A DNA stretch of 64,000 nucleotides from Candidatus Kuenenia stuttgartensis (GTDB lineage Bacteria > Planctomycetota > UBA11346). Every line of letters starts with the position of its first letter. Within the stretch, counting starts at the first letter, position 1. The stretch lies in contig CAMCMZ010000003.1 in assembly GCA_945876185.1 (NCBI GenBank), positions 15,454 to 79,453 on the forward strand, read 5' to 3'. Shown in pieces: positions 3,441 to 59,339 of the stretch. The position numbers were made by a program, and so were the translations under genes. The notes below the pieces were generated by a model, which saw only the letters and a program-made list of their open reading frames with translations, had not been told where the DNA came from and made no database searches.

Positions 3441-4451
3441 ATGGCTGACGCGACCGATGACCTGCAGGGCCGCAGACGCGCCGCCGCGTTCATGCTCTCG
3501 CTCGACAGCGAGACCGCTGCGATGGTCTTGCAGCGCTTCAACGAGCGCGAGGTCGGCATGCTGTCCGAGGAGATGACCCGCCTGGGCGACATCTCTGGCG
3601 CGCAGATGGAGAAGATCCTCAAGGATTTCAACAAGATGGTCGGTGGCGACCGGGTCTCGGTCGAACCGATGATCCAGGCCATCCTCGAACGCGCCCTGGG
3701 CAAGGAGCGCGCCAAGGAGCTGCTCGACAAGATCCGCAAGCAGTCGCGCGAAAGCGAGCCGTTCCGCTCGCTCCTCGCCTTCGAGGCCAAGCAGGTCGCG
3801 ACGCTTTTGCGCGGCGAGCATCCGCAGGTGCTGGCGCTGGTGATCTCGCACCTTGAGGCCGGCGTGGCGTCGGAACTGCTCAAGGACATGGCCGAGGACC
3901 TGCGCTATGAAGTCGTCAAGCGCATCGCCAGCACCCAGGAACTGCCGGCCGAACTGGTGCGCCAGGTCGACGAAATCATGGAGGTACGCGCCTATTCCCT
4001 GTCGCGCAGCGCCACCGGCGACAGCGGCCAGAACCGCTTCAAGACCGTGGCCCAGATGCTCAACATCAGCGATCCGTCGCTGGCCAAATCGATCCTCGAC
4101 CGACTCAACCGCGAATCGCCGCAGCTCGCCAACGAGATCCAGGCCCTGATGTTCGTCTTCGAGGACCTGGTCAAGATCGCCGACAAGGACATGCAGAAGG
4201 TGCTGGGCGAAATCGACAAGGGCGACCTGGTGCTGTCGCTGCGCACCGCCCCGCCCGAGGTGGCGCAGAAGATCCTCGGCAACCTCTCGAACCGCGCTCG
4301 CGACAACATGAAGGAGGAGATGGAGCTGATGGGGCCCAAGCCGCTCGCCGAGATCGAGGAGGCGCAGAAGCGCGTGCTGCAGGCGGTGCGCGCGATGGAA
4401 GAACGCGGCGACATCCAGATCAGCCGCGGTGGCACGGACAAAATGGTATGA
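3441..4451 (+). CDS. fliG: Flagellar motor switch protein FliG
   Basis: RRAAAFMLSL N-terminus, EHPQVLALVISHL, MFVFEDL, charged torque residues in EIEEAQKRVL. Confidence 0.97.
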   Translation: MADATDDLQGRRRAAAFMLSLDSETAAMVLQRFNEREVGMLSEEMTRLGDISGAQMEKILKDFNKMVGGDRVSVEPMIQAILERALGKERAKELLDKIRKQSRESEPFRSLLAFEAKQVATLLRGEHPQVLALVISHLEAGVASELLKDMAEDLRYEVVKRIASTQELPAELVRQVDEIMEVRAYSLSRSATGDSGQNRFKTVAQMLNISDPSLAKSILDRLNRESPQLANEIQALMFVFEDLVKIADKDMQKVLGEIDKGDLVLSLRTAPPEVAQKILGNLSNRARDNMKEEMELMGPKPLAEIEEAQKRVLQAVRAMEERGDIQISRGGTDKMV

Positions 4452-4552
4452 AAATCGACCATAGCGCCCCGGCTGCGGCGTTGGTCCTCGGTCATGTGGC
4501 GCTGCCACACTCCCTCCTCCCGCCTTGCATCCGGGGTGCTCTGATCGATTTT
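4451..4552 (+). repeat. 102-bp structured repeat, family B (diverged copy), starting at the fliG stop codon
   Basis: Same layout as copies at 13665, 37518 and 59126: ~26-bp imperfect terminal inverted arms, inner hairpin TGTGGC-GCT-GCCACA, CCTCC-rich linker. Confidence 0.8.
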
Positions 4553-4764
4553 CTTCTGGTCACTCGCGGGGCTTGCGCCCCAGTTCGACTGCGCCGCTGC
4601 GCGGCATGCGAGCTGCGCCCGTCCCCGCGCGGGGATCGACCTGGGGCGACGGTGGCTGCGCCACCGCGTTCCGCTGCGCGGAACCAAGCCCGTCCCTGCT
4701 CGCTTACGCTCGGTGGGTTGTTCTTCGCGGGCGCTGCCCGCTACGCCCGCCAGGGGCTCTCGCC

Positions 4765-13462: not shown

Positions 13463-13664
13463 GAGTGGCCGGAGCTCAATCCGTCAGTGGATTCATCCTA
13501 AACAGCGCAACAGATCCTTGAATGTGTTCACGAGTGGCCTCGGAATGACGTTTTGAATAGACTTGCTCGGTCACCAAATGGGTGATGGGGTCGATAGGCC
13601 CAAACCTGCTTCGATTGCTGGCAGTGCCCCCGCCCTTAAAAACAGTCCACCCACGATTCTCTGT

Positions 13665-13768
13665 AAAAATCGCAAGTGCGCCCCAGATGCAAGGCGGGAG
13701 GAGGGAGTTTGGCAGCGCCAAATGACCGACGACCAACGCAGCAGATGGGGTGCAATTGCGATTTTAGG
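13665..13768 (-). repeat. 102-bp structured repeat, family B
   Basis: Reverse-complement copy that begins TGA-A-CCT after the stop of the DUF2934 gene; inner hairpin TTTGGC-GCT-GCCAAA. Confidence 0.9.
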
Positions 13769-13769
13769 T

Positions 13770-14033
13770 TCATTGTGCCTTGAGCTTCGCGTCGATCTGC
13801 TTCTCCGCCTCGGCCCAGTCGGTGATCTGGTTGCCAGGGGTGAACCCGCGCTTCTCGGCCAGATAGTACGCCGCCTCGGCGATCATGCGCTGGCGCTGGC
13901 CCGGATCGATCTTCGCCACGACCGACGCGGCAGCGATGACGGCCGGTTTCGCGGCGGGCGCAAGCGCGGCCTTCGCAATCGGTACGGGCTGGGTGGTCTT
14001 GGGGGTGGCGAGGGCGGGTTTGGCGATGGCCAT
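13770..14033 (-). CDS. DUF2934-domain protein with Ala/Lys/Pro-rich N-terminus
   Basis: IAEAAYYLAEKRGF.PG...DWAEAE signature; GGAG RBS before MAIAKP. Confidence 0.85.
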   Translation of the reverse strand: MAIAKPALATPKTTQPVPIAKAALAPAAKPAVIAAASVVAKIDPGQRQRMIAEAAYYLAEKRGFTPGNQITDWAEAEKQIDAKLKAQ

Positions 14034-36385: not shown

Positions 36386-37513
36386 ATGCATCTCCTCTGC
36401 CAGCGCGACATCCTCCTGGCCGCCATCCAGGCGGCCGACGCCATCGTTCCGACCAACTCGACCAAACCGATCTTGAGCAACCTCCTCATCGAGGCGCTGG
36501 AAGACCGCGTCGAGATCGTGGCCACCGACACCCAGGTCGGCCTGCGCGCCGTGGTACGCCGGATTGAGGTCCGTGCCCCCGGCCAGGCGGTCGTCAACGC
36601 ACGGCAGATCTCGGCGATCCTGAAGGAGTCGCAGTCGAGCACGGTGAACATCCACCTGGAAACCGGCACCGACCGCCACCTCATGAAGGTCGAACTGTCC
36701 GATGGTCTGTACCAAGTGCCCGCGCTCGTCGGTGAAAGCCTGCCGCCGATATCGCCGTTCCCGACCAGCCACGAGACCGTGCGCCTGATGGCCAGCCGCC
36801 TCGATGAGATGCTCAACCAGACCGCATTCGCGATGGATAAAGACCGCACCAGCGCCGTGCTGTCCGGTCTCAGCCTGTCCTACGGCAACAGCGAATTCAT
36901 CCTAGCTGCGACCGATGGCAAGGTGCTGTGCGAGGCCGTCGAGCGCGCCGACATCTTCAATGTCAAAGATCGCGTCAACGTGGTCGTACCTGCCGGCACC
37001 GTGGGTCACCTGCAGCGCATCATGTCGGCGGCGCGTCCTGATACGGTGGAGATCACCATCGCGGGCAAACTCGCCTTCCTGCGTCTGGTCACCCTCACCG
37101 GACTCCATATCGAATTGTCGAGCCGGCTCGTTGAAGGAACGTTCCCCTCCTACCGCGCCGCACTGCCCAGCGCAGGCGGCAGCGCACGCGTGACCTTCCC
37201 TACCGCCGATCTCGCGGCCGCTGTGCGTCGTGTCGCGCTCATGGTCAGCCAGACCAGTCGCGGCGTGGTCATGCAGCTTGAACCCGGCCAGGCGACCTTC
37301 ACCAACCTGAACTACACCAACGGCAGCGCGCGCATTCCGGTGCCCTGCGAATACGCCGGCGCGCCGGTCAAACTCGGCGTCGACGTGAAGTACCTCGGTG
37401 ACGTGTTGCGCGTCTATCGCAGTGATCACATCGGCATCGACCTCGGTCGCGGCTTGGTCATGCGCGAGCCCGACGCGACCTACCTGATCATGCCGATCAG
37501 CCTGCCGAACTGA
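36386..37513 (+). CDS. dnaN: DNA polymerase III beta sliding clamp
   Basis: STKPILSNLLI, ATDTQV, AMDKDRTSAVLSG, ATDGKVL, SRLVEGTFPSY, YLIMP. Confidence 0.95.
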   Translation: MHLLCQRDILLAAIQAADAIVPTNSTKPILSNLLIEALEDRVEIVATDTQVGLRAVVRRIEVRAPGQAVVNARQISAILKESQSSTVNIHLETGTDRHLMKVELSDGLYQVPALVGESLPPISPFPTSHETVRLMASRLDEMLNQTAFAMDKDRTSAVLSGLSLSYGNSEFILAATDGKVLCEAVERADIFNVKDRVNVVVPAGTVGHLQRIMSAARPDTVEITIAGKLAFLRLVTLTGLHIELSSRLVEGTFPSYRAALPSAGGSARVTFPTADLAAAVRRVALMVSQTSRGVVMQLEPGQATFTNLNYTNGSARIPVPCEYAGAPVKLGVDVKYLGDVLRVYRSDHIGIDLGRGLVMREPDATYLIMPISLPN

Positions 37514-37514
37514 A

Positions 37515-37619
37515 CCTAAAAATCGCAATTGCACCCCATCTGCTGCGTTGGTCGTCAGTCATTGGGCGCTGCCCAACTCCTTCCTCCCGCCTAGCATCTG
37601 GGGCGCACTTGCGATTTTT
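37515..37619 (+). repeat. 102-bp structured repeat, family B
   Basis: TGA-A-CCT-AAAAATCGCAATTGCACCCCA...TGGGGCGCACTTGCGATTTTT directly after the dnaN stop. Confidence 0.92.
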
Positions 37620-37707
37620 CCACGAACCATTTGGGGATGAGAAGATAGGCCAGCAAAGTCTGCACATGAAGGCGAGGGTGCATTGAGATGTTTAGGCTGA
37701 ACGAAAC

Positions 37708-38943
37708 ATGAGTGGCACACCACGCACCGTGCCGGTGGGCCCGCCGCCAGAGGAACCCGCCTGGACCACGGCGGCTACCGCGATCGCCACCCTGCGCGCC
37801 GCCGGTCACGAGGCCTGGGCGGTCGGCGGCTGCGTGCGCGATCATCTGCTCGGACGCACGGCGAAGGACGTTGACGTCGCGACCTCGGCCCGGCCGGAAC
37901 AGGTCGAAACCCTATTCGCCCACACCATCCCGGTGGGCAAGGCTTTCGGCGTGATGATCGTCGTGCTCGACGGCCACAACCTGGAAGTTGCGACATTTCG
38001 TTCCGACGGCTGCTACATCGACGGCCGCCGGCCCGATGCGGTGACCTTCGCAACCGCCGCCGAGGACGTGCACCGCCGCGATTTCACCATCAACGCACTG
38101 CTCATGGATGTGACCACGGCGCAGGTCGTCGACCACGTCGGCGGCCTCGACGACCTCGCGGCGCGGCGCCTGCGCGCGGTGGGCGATGCGGCGGCGCGTC
38201 TGCGGGAAGACCGCCTGCGCGTGCTGCGCGGCCTGCGCTTCGCGGCGCACCTGGATCTCAGCATCGAACCGGCAACCTGGGCCGCGATCACCACAACCAG
38301 CCTGACCGGACTGTCGTCCGAGCGGTTGGTGCAGGAACTCGACAAGGGCCTCGCCGCACCGCGACACCGCTCCCGCTGGCTGGGTCTGCTGCGCACCAGC
38401 GGCGCTTTGACCGGATTGTGTCCGCCTGTGGCGGAACTCCCTGGCCCGGTCCTCGATGAACTTGGCAGCGTGCTCAAGCGCCTTGCGAGTGACGATCCTG
38501 ATTCCCTTCTTGCGGCCTGGTTGCGTCCGGCACCGGGTTGGGGGATCTGGTTGGAAGCGCAGCCGATCTCGCGCCAGCGCCAGCGCCGCGTCAGTTGGTT
38601 TATCGAACAGCTTCGTCCGCCCGCAGACCTCGTCGCCCTCCCCGTCGCCCAGCGCCGCCGGCTCCTGCAGCAGACCGACGCCGCCGCGCTGGTTGCGCTC
38701 GCTCGCGCGCATTGGCCGGACCACGCCGCGCTGGCGGAGCTTGACCACGTCCTCGCGGCAGAGACCGCCGCCGGACCGTTCCATCCGTTGGTGCGTTCTG
38801 ACGACCTGAAAACGCTGGGGTTCGTTCCCGGAAAAGGTTTCGGCGAGACGCTCAAGTGGCTGGAGGACAGGCAATTAGAGGGTGCCTTCACGACGCACGA
38901 CGCCGGCCTCGCGTTGGCTCGGACCCGTTTGGCCAGGCCGTGA
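37708..38943 (+). CDS. cca: Class II CCA-adding tRNA nucleotidyltransferase
   Basis: VGGCVRD...DVDVAT, RRDFTINAL, EDRLRVLRGLRF; the poly(A)-polymerase G[RK][RK]F signature is absent. Confidence 0.85.
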   Translation: MSGTPRTVPVGPPPEEPAWTTAATAIATLRAAGHEAWAVGGCVRDHLLGRTAKDVDVATSARPEQVETLFAHTIPVGKAFGVMIVVLDGHNLEVATFRSDGCYIDGRRPDAVTFATAAEDVHRRDFTINALLMDVTTAQVVDHVGGLDDLAARRLRAVGDAAARLREDRLRVLRGLRFAAHLDLSIEPATWAAITTTSLTGLSSERLVQELDKGLAAPRHRSRWLGLLRTSGALTGLCPPVAELPGPVLDELGSVLKRLASDDPDSLLAAWLRPAPGWGIWLEAQPISRQRQRRVSWFIEQLRPPADLVALPVAQRRRLLQQTDAAALVALARAHWPDHAALAELDHVLAAETAAGPFHPLVRSDDLKTLGFVPGKGFGETLKWLEDRQLEGAFTTHDAGLALARTRLARP

Positions 38944-55600: not shown

Positions 55601-58600
55601 TGGTCTTTCCCCCTGGCTCAGCGGTCGCGATGCCTATGTGATGATCGGTTATAACCGAATACGCGGAGTGTTCGTGCAGCAGCGTCGGGTAGCGGCGGAA
55701 ACGTGGTACAGCGAGGCCAGGGTGCCGAAGTGGTTCGTCGGGGCAGGGGCAAGCTTCAAAGAAGAAGATCAAAGCGGAAACATCAGGTTACCAACCAGCG
55801 ATAGTGCTGGGGAAGTCGATTCGTACCTCAAGCCTCTGGTCACCACTTCGGGCCAGACCGAGCCCTACAGCTTCAACAATAAGCGTTTCGAATATTCTAA
55901 TTATGTGTTGGCGGCTACGATGGAAAAATATCGTGAAGTCCTTCCTGTCCCCACCCCAACGGTTACCCAAACACCTGTCGACGTCGCCAATAATTCCCTG
56001 CGCTGCGAACCGCAGGAAATAATAGAGGAAGGTAGGAGGCATTCCGTGACTGTCCGGCGTACAGGCGGAGTGATCTCTCGTACCGTGAAACCCAGGAAAA
56101 CGATCTACCCCTACTGGAATCAGACGATCTACCTGCGTCTGAACAGCGCCTTGCCACCGTTACAGTCTGGCGATGATGGTAAGACGTTGACGCTGTATAA
56201 CCTCATTTCACCCTTTGGACAGAGGTGGTCTGGAAAGGTGTCCGTAACCCCCCCCACCGAAATCAAAATCGTAGAAGGGGACCCGAATTTCGATACCTAT
56301 TCCACAGATGGTTCAGATATCACGAGCCCCATCGCGACCCGTGCGGATCGGACCTACGAGAACAACGTGGTCTTCGTCAGAGACGGTCAGATCAATGGCA
56401 AGACAGCGGAATACATCAAAAATTCAATGAATTCCAATTCGGCCGGTGGTTGCATAACCTGGATCCTGCCGTCATCCGGCAATGCATGGCCGGACTCAAA
56501 TGGATTTCTCAAGGCACCGCGCCCAACAATTACGCAGGCCCATTATGATGCAGTCACTGATCCGACGATCCCGCCTGGCACCGTGGGCCGCTATCGCATA
56601 AACATCCCGAACGGAAATTACTATTTCGCCATCGACCGGGGTTGGAGCAACCGTGACGTCTACCAGGATATTAACAGTTGGGTGAGTCGTACGGGAGTGT
56701 GGAACGCAACGCCTGTGCCACAGGTTGTACCCTGGACCACCGCATGGAATCTGCCTGGGGTCGAGCGGGTGAAGACCTATAGCCATCGGCCGGATCTCTG
56801 GGGATCAACCAACGTCGCCTCTGTCAGCGGGGATGTTTTCAATACCTACCAGGCCCTAAATGCGGGCGCGGGCTTGGTTCCGATCATTCCGGACGGCGTG
56901 ACCAATCCTAGCGCTCGAACCCCATGGTATCTCACCGACGACATCCCGACGCCACCGTCCACCGCTTCATCGCCACCCTGGTCGGATGAGCAGAAACTGA
57001 TCTGGGATCCCAACCTGGAATCCGTGTGGTTGCGCATCGAACAGGATCCGGATCAACCCAAAATGGTCCGATTCGCCTGGTCGCCGAAGTCGACGCAGCC
57101 GCTGGATTCCGAATGGCAGTATGTTACCAAAGACTCCGGCACGACTTCGGTGCAGGGCAGAGACAACGCCAATGCGAGTCCTGACATTCTGCGGATCGAT
57201 CTGTCCCCGTCTGACACGCGCAGTATTTGGGGTGGCCAAACGGACCCGACGGCGCCCAATGATCAGATCCTGGCCGGGCCGTGCTTCCAGAACGCGGGAT
57301 TCACCTCCACCGGCAACGGGACCTCAGCCGCTTTCACCGCGACGATGAGCGACCTGAAAGTCGTGGTGGCAGGCGACTCCGCCGATGTCAATGGAGATGG
57401 CGTCATCGACACGAGCGACTGGTTCTCGCCCACGACGGGCAGCTCTGCGTCTCCAGAATCGGCCTACCTTGCCAGCCAATACCAGGTACTTTGGGGCCCT
57501 TACGACATCACCGAGGATTTCTTCACCTGGCAAGAGACCCAGGGCAATGCCGGGCGCACCGCCTGGGAGGACTGGATGTACAGTCCGCGCGAGTTCTGGA
57601 GCCAGTCCCGATACTGGTACAATGCAGCCGTCAACGATACGTTCACCGATGCAAGGCATGTTGACAAGGAAAAGGATCCTGGCGGCCACAGCAACCTCGC
57701 CAATCGCCTGGCCCTGGCCCAGACCACCCTGCTCACCCTGAATATGGGCCGTTACGACGCCATCAACCAGACCGGTATCCAGGGCTACCTGCGCAACCGC
57801 CGTTTGGTTGATGCGGTGCAGAATCGCCCCTTCACCGATTCGCAGAATAGGAACCCCCCAGCGGTGTATCTCGGGGACCAGGGCCTGCTTCTCAAGGATT
57901 CATTCAATGGCCTGATCTATGCAGCGCGCACCAACCGCTATCCCTGGAACCCAACGATTCCCAACGGTAGCACATATGCCGGAATGAATCTGGCTGCCGC
58001 CTGGGATCTTGGTGCCAACCTGTTCCCGAATACGACCCCAAATCTGTCCGGCACGAACCCCCTGGCGGATGTCGTCATCGCCAACCGTGCGAATCTCAAT
58101 GGATTGACCGCATCGCGCTCGGCCAATCGCATCGACCCGGCCACGAGAATTGTGTACCACCGGCTCCAGTCCTATACGGATCTGCTGGGTGCCCCTGCGA
58201 CCAAACCCCAGGATTTCCACCATGGGGTCCGGGTGGTCAATGCCTCCGACATCCACTGGGGTTTTCCCAATCCCACAGGTGCAACCGCAGGGACATTTGG
58301 CGAGAGCAAGACGTCAATCGTCACCCCAAACCAACTCTACCTGTGCGGCGACGTCAATACCATTGACTATCCACTGACGACGCGCAATGCGCAGACCCCG
58401 GTTCGCCATACCGCCCCGTTGGCGGTGATGGGCGATGTCATCCACCTGCTGTCCAACGCGTTTTCTCCGTACAATCCGGCCAACCCGGTCAGGAGTTATG
58501 CCATCCCTTCCATCTACAAGGACAAGTCGATCACCCCCCCCCCCGCCCCCGACCCCGACCGTGCCCCCGACCCCGCCCCCGATCCAGGCCTCGATCACCG

Positions 58601-59121
58601 GGTCCGGCATCCTGGTCAATCCCACCCAGTACCCGGCCACGACGACCACCTACAACACCTGCATCCTGACCCACAATCAACCCACCACCCGGGCCACCGT
58701 TCTGGAAGGTCAGGGGGCGGCGTTCGTCGACACCATGCAGTTCATGGAGAACTGGAATGGTGCCAGCATGTATTTCAAGGGAAGTCTGGTGGTCATGGAT
58801 ACGCGTCGCTACACCCAGGCCTTTCTGCTCGATTTGGAAAAGCGGTATGGCCGCACCGTCTTCGGCACCACGGTTGCGAATGGTAGTCGGGTAGGGGGCA
58901 GACTCGAAGCCGCCCCGTTGACCGGGACAGAGGTGGCCGGGTGGCAAACCATCTACACGGGTCTGGGCCTGAACCAACAATGGGATGGATTTATTCCCCA
59001 GGCCTATGGCGTACCTTCCCGCATCTATTCCTTCAACAACGACCTTCTGACCCCGGAAGGCACCCCACCGTTCACGCCCTTCGGTGTGACCACCAGCGGC
59101 ATCGGCGGCTGGCTGCGTTGA
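52623..59121 (+). CDS. Giant PilX/GspK-like tip adhesin (~2165 aa if intact) with a PA14 domain; frameshifted at C11 tract 58534-58544
   Basis: RSG/NAIVLSLALVV N-terminus lacking E5; PA14 (FSYRLEG.L.P...HDDG..IWFDG...L.AG..YPIVVEY); DVNGDGVIDTSD loop; the conserved-looking C-terminus (MENW..FKGSLV..P.R.YSF..D....TPP.TP) lies in the +1 frame (ORF 58435-59121). Confidence 0.8.
58534..58544 (+). repeat. C11 homopolymer at the frameshift point
   Basis: ATCA-C11-GCC; C10 or C13 would join the two reading frames. Confidence 0.9.
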
Positions 59122-59122
59122 G

Positions 59123-59227
59123 CCTAAAAATCGCAATTGCACCCCAGCTGCGGCGTTGGTCGTCAGTCATTGGGCGCTGCCCAACTCCTTCCTCCCGCCT
59201 TGCATCTGGGGCGCACTTGCGATTTTT
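59123..59227 (+). repeat. 102-bp structured repeat, family B
   Basis: TGA-G-CCT-AAAAATCGCAATTGC... directly after the stop (59119-59121) of the +1-frame adhesin C-terminus. Confidence 0.92.
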
Positions 59228-59339
59228 AATGGAAATTGTTGGTGCGGCGGTTTCGACGATGGTGGAAAAGGTGAGGGCGGGAAATTCAAGTCGCCGTCGG
59301 TGTGCTTGAGTCCGATCCGCGCAGTCTAGCGTCGCGCGC

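Follow-up and report, generated by a model that had tools for sequence, protein, structure and literature searches.

The subject of this analysis is a repeated hairpin element that occurs four times in a 64,000-nucleotide window (C3:15454-79453) of a 3.8-Mb metagenome-assembled genome (MAG) with 66% GC and 123 contigs, termed G000. Comparison of these copies with others in the same genome and in related genomes, all of which are draft MAGs, assigns the repeat with high confidence to a family of MITEs (miniature inverted-repeat transposable elements), which are non-autonomous DNA transposons. Its members have terminal inverted repeats (TIRs) and a target-site duplication (TSD) of fixed length that is present as a single copy at empty sites, and they are small, non-coding and repeated at least 132 times. 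Most copies lie directly behind a stop codon, in the sense orientation of the gene that ends there.

Two of the window copies carry the full set of landmarks. Behind dnaN, a composite MITE of 182 bp (37515..37696, plus strand) consists of a hairpin module (37515-37619), an internally deleted second module of a type called family C, and a right TIR (...GAGATGTTTAGG). It is bounded by CTGAA duplications at 37510..37514 and 37697..37701; the TGA of the left one (37511-37513) is the dnaN stop codon, and the ATG of the next gene lies 6 nt beyond the right one. On the minus strand, a complete composite MITE of 272 bp (13497..13768) comprises a hairpin module (13664-13768), a family B second module and a right TIR (...GCGCTGTTTAGG). 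Its two ATGAA duplications (left, 13769..13773; right, 13492..13496) are identical, and the TGA of the left copy (13772-13770) is the stop codon of a gene for a DUF2934 protein. An earlier annotation made from the letters of the window alone (the sequence-only reading) had described a 102-bp element, in four copies, with no visible TSD. The positions of the four copies, which can be aligned over ~105 nt, were reproduced, as were their sense orientation, their placement 0-4 nt after a TGA, and the inner-stem variants TGTGGC/GCCACA, TTTGGC/GCCAAA and TTGGGC/GCCCAA around a GCT loop. The size and the missing duplication did not hold, because both composite elements extend well past the hairpin to an inverted copy of the left terminus and are flanked by 5-bp TSDs. 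As to the upstream genes, Pfam supports the names FliG, DnaN and DUF2934 protein, but the tail called an adhesin has no Pfam match.

The other two window copies are incomplete. The fliG gene (open reading frame (ORF) 3441-4448, with the Pfam domains FliG_N, FliG_M and FliG_C; TGA at 4449..4451, plus strand) is followed by an old and eroded solo hairpin at 4450..4553 (plus strand), which has no CCT terminus, second module or TSD. The G and A of the stop codon pair in the base of this hairpin, and its arms, GAAAATCGACCATAGCGCCCCGG / CCGGGGTGCTCTGATCGATTTTC, have changed in concert, as had been claimed. The same copy stands at the orthologous fliG stop in a congener, G001 (locus L120), and is absent from that of the relative G010 (L122). 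The fourth hairpin module (59123..59227, plus strand) lies behind the TGA at 59119-59121 of an adhesin-like ORF and is followed by a truncated family A second module (59228..59288, plus strand) that lacks the right TIR. A TTGAG found ~183 nt into this element may be a chance occurrence, and its TSD is not verified. For the adhesin-like ORF (58435-59121), the codon score of the frame closed by this TGA is low (3.1 over 80 codons), and our gene caller stopped the gene 237 nt upstream.

A search of G000 with an nhmmer profile returned 95 full short copies and 30 long copies (~202 nt), plus partial copies. In ~57 copies, the 105-nt hairpin or its 202-nt long form is the left module of an element of 143-370 bp, most often ~270 bp. 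These elements are ordered as a left terminus (CCTAAAAATCGCAAT...), the hairpin module, a variable second module of ~170 nt, and a right terminus (...TTGCGAnnTTTAGG). The ends form inverted repeats (CCTAAA...TTTAGG), the right end being the inverse of the left terminus CCTAAAAATCGCAA. Second modules fall into three families, A (32 loci), B (12) and C (13), and are almost never found without the hairpin. By eye, and with no formal ORF test, no ORF in the alignment of second modules survives the indels between copies. In the long form, a ~100-nt domain that has a covarying stem of its own (GTCAGGACGGGTG...CACCCGTCCTGAC and variants) takes the place of the inner hairpin. This domain has conserved internal motifs, GAACGAT and CCAAGCGACCGTGCGGCC, and never occurs outside the hairpin; examples in G000 are C54:23676, C53:18966 and C2:93227 (loci L061-L068), and none lies in the window. 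Some hairpins form tandem arrays of two to four units that repeat every ~125-150 nt and are separated by identical spacers, at L041, L042, L047 and L052 in G010 and at C67:11946-12306 and C65:8069-8417 in G000. They look like tandem duplications rather than repeated insertions.

Evidence for transposition comes from the target sites. The 5 nt just outside the two termini agree within each copy but vary from one copy to another. Perfect 5-bp TSDs were found in 29 copies; they have the form N-T-N-A-N, with TGA at the centre of 20, TAA of 3, TCA of 5 and TTA of 1. In G001, the dnaN site is empty and holds a single CTGAA, and the joined flanks of the G000 insertion match one contiguous stretch at 86%. 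Conversely, for three insertions in G001 (TSDs ATGAC, TTGAA and CTGAA), G000 has the pentamer only once. Insertion is proven by such empty sites in a congener. About 15 of the 25 mapped G001 copies are absent from G000, and a third species of the same genus (G002) has no copies of the hairpin family. The MAG of the congener, CAZZJC01, is labelled 'uncultured Candidatus Kuenenia sp.' and was placed in the genus of the window genome (~66% GC, flagellated). The GC content of Kuenenia is ~41%, and the label on CAZZJC01 looks doubtful.

The element splits translationally coupled operon genes and breaks neither ORF. At least 4 of the 16 verified stop insertions lie on ATGA or GTGA overlaps, where the right TSD copy supplies the start codon of the next gene. 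Many TSDs read ATGAN or GTGAN, reflecting insertion on a stop/start overlap or just ahead of the next start; examples are C47:13022, C36:31943, C37:36573 and C13:27436 in G000, and 37697-37712 in the window. The downstream ORFs after C47:13022 and C2:13752 begin with apparent lipoprotein-type signal peptides.

A candidate partner transposase was also found. At its end, contig C95 of G000 carries a truncated transposase, for which IS1380 is the best-matching family (NF033539; E 1e-13, 50.6 bits, C-terminal third only). The end of this insertion sequence (IS), CCTAAACGTCTCAATAGACCC, is flanked by GTAAA and shares 21 of 25 positions with the right end of the dnaN MITE. Planctomycete relatives of the C95 IS, 64-74% identical to it, end in ...TTTAGG next to ATGAT, ATCAA and GTTAA. 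One full-length relative, L073, is 1707 bp long with ends CCTAAA.../...TTTAGG and encodes a 523-amino acid protein that aligns with NF033539 end to end (positions 10-418 of 419; 161.7 bits, E 2e-47). This score is far above that of every other IS family, but it falls under the curated cut-off of 180; therefore, we call the element IS1380-like and do not certify it as an IS1380 member. Ends CCTAGAAAAATC...TTTTTAGG and 5-bp WTNAN duplications were seen in about 12 gammaproteobacterial IS copies belonging to this clade. CCTAAA/CCTAGA ends and 5-bp TSDs are common to the MITE, the planctomycete IS copies and these gammaproteobacterial ones, the TSDs of the IS copies being NTNAN or WTNAN, and the left ~50 nt of the MITE resemble the IS subterminal region. 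Members of the IS1380 family have inverted repeats (IRs) starting with CC and 4-5-bp duplications in the ISfinder description. Judged from these sequence likenesses, the MITE family was quite probably derived from an IS1380-like IS and mobilised by its transposase.

Searches with NF033539 in G000, G001, G010 and G008 gave sub-threshold fragments only, and the C95-type IS is absent or fragmentary in 25 relatives; a transposase fragment in G010 (L119) is a relic without an end. The DNA between inverted MITE ends 1-3.5 kb apart in G000 holds host-like ORFs and no transposase-like ORF when read by eye, with no Pfam scan made, and one such pair of ends encloses a two-component histidine kinase and response regulator. 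IS1380 members can mobilise variable adjacent DNA through IR-like sequences (PMC9330008). A constant left module joined to variable right modules fits this use of downstream IR-like sequences by IS1380 elements (PMC9330008).

The proposal in the sequence-only reading that copies favour stop codons in the sense orientation holds genome-wide. A copy was scored as stop-associated if an ORF on the same strand, with at least 60 open codons and a log-odds score above 15, ended no more than 14 nt upstream; genes were called with a self-built, self-trained codon log-odds caller, which is a crude model. By this test, 104 of the 132 left-end copies in G000 (79%) lie at a well-scoring stop, whereas 10.8% are expected (P~4e-74), and the stops are TGA in 79 cases, TAA in 18 and TAG in 7. 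The expectation is the share of real stops among non-coding N-T-N-A-N sites. It is lower for AT-rich pentamers, and a preference for such pentamers was rejected as the cause of the stop excess for this reason. With the gene caller, 80 of the 95 short copies are directly behind the 3' end of a gene on the same strand, 45 of them at one exact offset, and none is intragenic. About 20% of copies are not behind a gene.

Copies verified by a TSD allow the orientation to be examined separately. These 29 copies comprise 16 in sense at a stop, 1 in antisense at a stop, and 12 at T-N-A sites that are not stops; the orientation of the last group is unbiased (7:5). Of five IS copies, full or partial, none is at a real stop. 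Copies without an intact TSD are at stops more often (87 of 103) than those with a perfect one (17 of 29). No clear target motif or composition asymmetry was seen around insertion sites beyond the 5 bp, and composition asymmetry was rejected as the cause of the orientation on this ground.

The association with stops is also observed in relatives. A covariance model detected the hairpin in 22 of 48 genomes; these represent 11 of the order's 18 genera and belong to a single family. In G001, 26 of 32 copies are at coding stops. The hairpins of G010 have different arms (TCCCTCCGGCG...) and form tandem arrays whose first units stand behind stops. In another genus, g3, the core has diverged and the stop codon is inside the stem (CTGAAAAG...CTTTTCAG or TAAAAA...); 16 of 29 copies are at stops by the strict test, and up to 22 of 29 if borderline scores are admitted. 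No TSD is visible in g3. At the g3 loci L130-L159 (G004 and G021), the stop codon forms part of the stem CTGAAAAGCGC...GCGCTTTTCAG. One of these copies, L156, has a compensated change (CTGTAAAG / CTTTACAG) by which, in addition, the stop becomes a TAA in another frame instead of TGA. The intergenic DNA of G010 contains a second, unrelated short palindromic repeat, CCCTGGGACCGCGGGCCTCCAGGCCCGC, that is REP-like (L053, L054 and L057).

The hairpin itself is predicted to be stable, and its stem covaries. The dnaN copy has a predicted fold of -46.4 kcal/mol (z = -6.8), and a long form one of -88.4 kcal/mol (z = -4.95). In an alignment of 50 diverse copies from four genomes, made with MAFFT only, 91.5% of stem cells are paired and 19 of 30 pairs have changed on both sides. 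This level was reached by none of 500 shuffles and approached by no slid register, bearing out the earlier claim of compensatory changes in the stem. Many arms that occur in a single copy are individually complementary, such as AAAACGGCCAT/CTGGCCGTTTT and AAAATCGACCAT/CTGATCGATTTT, and two near-invariant G.U pairs exist on the sense strand only. At two orthologous insertions shared by G000 and G001, the hairpin module (~205 nt in total) shows 0 differences, whereas upstream coding DNA differs by 8-12%, the second module by 5-6% plus a 24-nt indel, and downstream DNA by 10-15%.

The two species differ in form at two other orthologous loci, G001 carrying a short copy and G000 a long one, although the locus-specific arms and the flanks are the same in both (C58:~1561 in G000 versus L001:~1989, and C70:~5122 in G000 versus L011:~4267). 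This swap within shared arms indicates that copies convert each other by ectopic gene conversion of the element centre. A simple deletion of the long form was rejected as the origin of the short form, because the junctions misfit at orthologous loci and gene conversion fits better. Conservation of the hairpin can, on sequence grounds, reflect cis-acting transposition sequences, gene conversion or host RNA function. We favour the first two: the arms and core would be conserved as the ends and subterminal sequences on which transposition acts in cis, and gene conversion between copies would homogenise them. Old immobile copies such as that at fliG keep their hairpin.

The element inserts into N-T-N-A-N and duplicates these 5 bp, and we propose that a transposase supplied in trans carries this out. 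TGA and TAA fit T-N-A; hence, when a stop lies at the centre of the target, it is restored on the left of the element. ATGA and GTGA overlaps have the start rebuilt on the right as well, so both genes stay intact. The excess of sense copies at stops would then come mainly from which insertions survive, the stop codon being presumably the sole T-N-A site at which neither a gene nor a downstream signal is split. In the sense orientation, a strong hairpin would face the terminating ribosome, which could unwind it, and an antisense insertion would put a GGAGG-rich segment into the transcript and alter its 3' context. The IS copies away from stops, the unbiased orientation of non-stop insertions and the greater enrichment at stops among copies without a TSD favour survival over pure targeting. 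We therefore lean towards survival of stop-centred sense insertions as the explanation of the excess. That the transposition machinery itself prefers gene ends has a somewhat lower, though substantial, probability.

Several observations weigh against this account. Copies with a perfect TSD and copies specific to G001 are already 55-80% at stops; thus, selection, if it is the cause, must act fast, and intrinsic targeting stays a serious alternative. TAG does not fit T-N-A, yet the 7 of 104 copies at TAG stops have the same offset as the rest. With a convergent gene next, the bias appears to be kept: 5 sense and 1 antisense copies are verified by a TSD, and by our reading of the tables there are ~35 sense copies at stops versus a handful of possible antisense ones. 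In g3 and G010, the termini are not CCTAAA and no TSD was seen, yet the association with stops persists. The identity of the hairpin at the two shared loci is also expected from selection on RNA at the level of the host. With regard to the partner, the transposase scores below the NCBIfam cut-off, and no full-length IS is assembled in G000 or G001.

In the reading of intrinsic targeting, a complex of transposase and element is directed to stops, and oriented there, by a mark of gene ends before selection acts. Such a mark might be the machinery that terminates transcription or translation, or some DNA feature of gene ends. The early enrichment of perfect-TSD and lineage-specific copies is what this model predicts, and it would account for the 16:1 orientation at stops and for a stop usage close to that of the genome itself, including TAG, which is unfit for T-N-A. 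It sits poorly with IS copies of the same clade that are not at stops (n=5), with the 12 of 29 TSD-verified copies at non-stop T-N-A sites in random orientation, and with the lack of an extended target motif. Moreover, we know of no DNA transposase that reads reading frames. We consider active targeting possible but unlikely.

The sequence-only reading also put forward a cis-acting 3'-UTR RNA motif, which is possible but not established. A different explanation of the same bias is that the hairpin is, or became, a 3'-end RNA element useful to the host. It might protect 3' ends from exonucleases, or work as a switch that responds to the ribosome, its left arm being opened as translation terminates. 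Selection would keep the hairpin behind stops in the sense orientation, and transposition would be its delivery vehicle only. Sense orientation in 79-81% of copies in two genomes, extending to genera with different arms, agrees with such a role, as do old single-copy arms that still pair through compensatory changes, the ~205 nt of hairpin that are unchanged at orthologous loci next to genes differing by 8-12%, and the two G.U pairs confined to the sense strand. So do the g3 copies, whose stop codon takes part in stem pairing, with a compensated change in one of them. In addition, the first bases of module 2, which precede a T-run, can serve as an alternative partner of the right arm if G.U pairs are used. 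However, neither the covariation nor the conservation calls for an RNA role, since TIR symmetry, transposition sequences acting in cis or gene conversion can each account for them. No Rfam family matches: there was no match at gathering thresholds in the window, and eight long-form loci, searched at E <= 1, gave only chance-level E values of 0.16 or more. The terminator-like A/U tracts of G000 are absent in G010, several copies lie within operons between overlapping genes, where the hairpin cannot be a strong terminator, and about a fifth of copies are not behind a gene. Exaptation as a host RNA element is accordingly a tentative reading of the sequence patterns that we would not favour. It is more doubtful still that the family is a transposon-borne RNA module with a function, or insertion, tied to the end of translation, and homing to or selected at stops. 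In this variant, 3'-end formation or decay could, for example, be set by the terminating ribosome as it melts the left arm.

The alternative pairing of the right arm is seen at 13648-13678 (minus strand) in the window, where CACTTGCGATT / AATCGTGGGTG joins the hairpin right arm to the start of module 2 and a T-run follows. It uses G.U pairs present only on the sense strand, and this modelled fold is possibly terminator-like. Scans of the dnaN and DUF2934 elements for terminators reported one secondary hairpin only, in the family B copy at the same place (13678-13648, minus strand). No sigma-70 promoter was found in these two elements, and an outward promoter in module 2 is unsupported for this reason.

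A plain intrinsic, bidirectional terminator that has spread as a repeat is improbable. In G000, an A-tract and a T-tract border the stem (AAAAATCGC...GCGATTTTT), which stands behind stop codons, as such a terminator would. However, a stem-loop of 105-202 nt is far from the usual terminator size, the A/T tracts are absent in G010, and the scan found no consensus terminator for the main hairpin; the explanation was rejected on these points. The element also splits operons, for example separating dnaN from the gene 8 nt downstream or interrupting ATGA overlaps, and read-through or a new promoter would be needed there. Because operons such as dnaN and its neighbour are split, the element is not a strong terminator everywhere.

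The sequence-only reading had left room for a strand-specific repeat moved by an HUH (Y1) transposase, in the manner of REP or REPIN hairpins, which insert 3' of a short target without a TSD. The hairpin shape, high copy number, extragenic position by gene ends and strand bias recall such elements, REP termini can give stop codons to flanking ORFs (PMC3733652), and no TSD was seen in old copies or in other genera. For the CCTAAA-type copies this origin is contradicted by perfect and variable 5-bp direct duplications, by single-copy empty sites in the congener, and by TIRs that match those of a DDE-type, IS1380-like element; there is also no conserved 5' tetranucleotide tag, and no RAYT gene was linked to the family, though no search aimed at one was made. 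We regard an HUH origin as very improbable. Integron attC sites (RYYYAAC...GTTRRRY, cassette arrays, no TSD) are ruled out by the CCTAAA/TTTAGG ends, the dispersal behind housekeeping genes and the TSDs.

Among known systems, the closest likeness is to the IS1380 family (ISEcp1 and ISPme1), whose ends begin with CCTA, which makes a 5-bp duplication, and which gives the best match to the related transposase (NF033539). The constant left and variable right modules, closed by an IR-like sequence, resemble the formation of IS1380 'transposable modules' by IR misrecognition (PMC9330008). In contrast to IS1380 elements, the MITE is non-coding and 143-370 bp long, has its left end folded into a long hairpin, and exceeds 130 copies per genome. 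The transposase clade related to it is divergent (161.7 bits against the cut-off of 180), and its strong association with stops in one orientation has no counterpart in any report on IS1380 elements that we found.

Correia/NEMIS elements of Neisseria, ERIC and RUP are hairpin-forming bacterial MITEs that are transcribed with neighbouring genes. Like the present family, they are 100-300 bp long with TIRs and TSDs, exist in short and long forms, lie in intergenic DNA near gene ends, and form long RNA hairpins. However, they duplicate TA or other targets and are not known for a comparable fixation at stop codons, whereas here the N-T-N-A-N duplication is centred on the stop, 79% of copies are at stops and the orientation there is 16:1 sense. 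Mycobacterial MIRUs are likewise oriented intergenic repeats at stop/start junctions in operons that preserve both neighbouring ORFs, but they are tandem minisatellites with small ORFs rather than TIR/TSD transposons or long hairpins. REP, BIME and REPIN elements share compensatory stem evolution and possible effects on mRNA 3' ends. They differ in being 20-40 bp long, in carrying a GTAG/CGTC tag, and in being HUH-moved without a TSD, whereas the MITE has TIRs, TSDs and a DDE-type partner. REP elements are extragenic palindromes, many of which lie beside or overlap stop codons (PMC3733652), and stop codons supplied by REP termini are a partial precedent (PMC3733652). The sequence-only reading had treated a known MITE with TSDs as the finding that would count against its proposal. 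The family is a MITE with TSDs, but our literature search found no description of it, or of stop-codon-centred IS1380 MITEs.

The family explains many of the contig breaks and intergenic repeats in these MAGs, and it should be masked ahead of calling intergenic 'conserved RNA motifs' in them. It also provides a clean, data-rich natural case in which a 5-bp duplication centred on stops spares the upstream gene and, at ATGA overlaps, the downstream gene as well. More than 75% of surviving copies are at stops in one orientation, in several genera. An intrinsic bias would represent a target choice of a kind that is new for DDE transposases. Should the bias instead be selective, the hairpin would be a candidate for a portable 3'-UTR (3' untranslated region) module in a phylum whose post-transcriptional control is almost unstudied. 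Were the RNA-module reading to be true, the element would be a mobile, plug-in '3'-end cassette' distributed over more than 100 unrelated genes and at least 11 genera of one planctomycete family.

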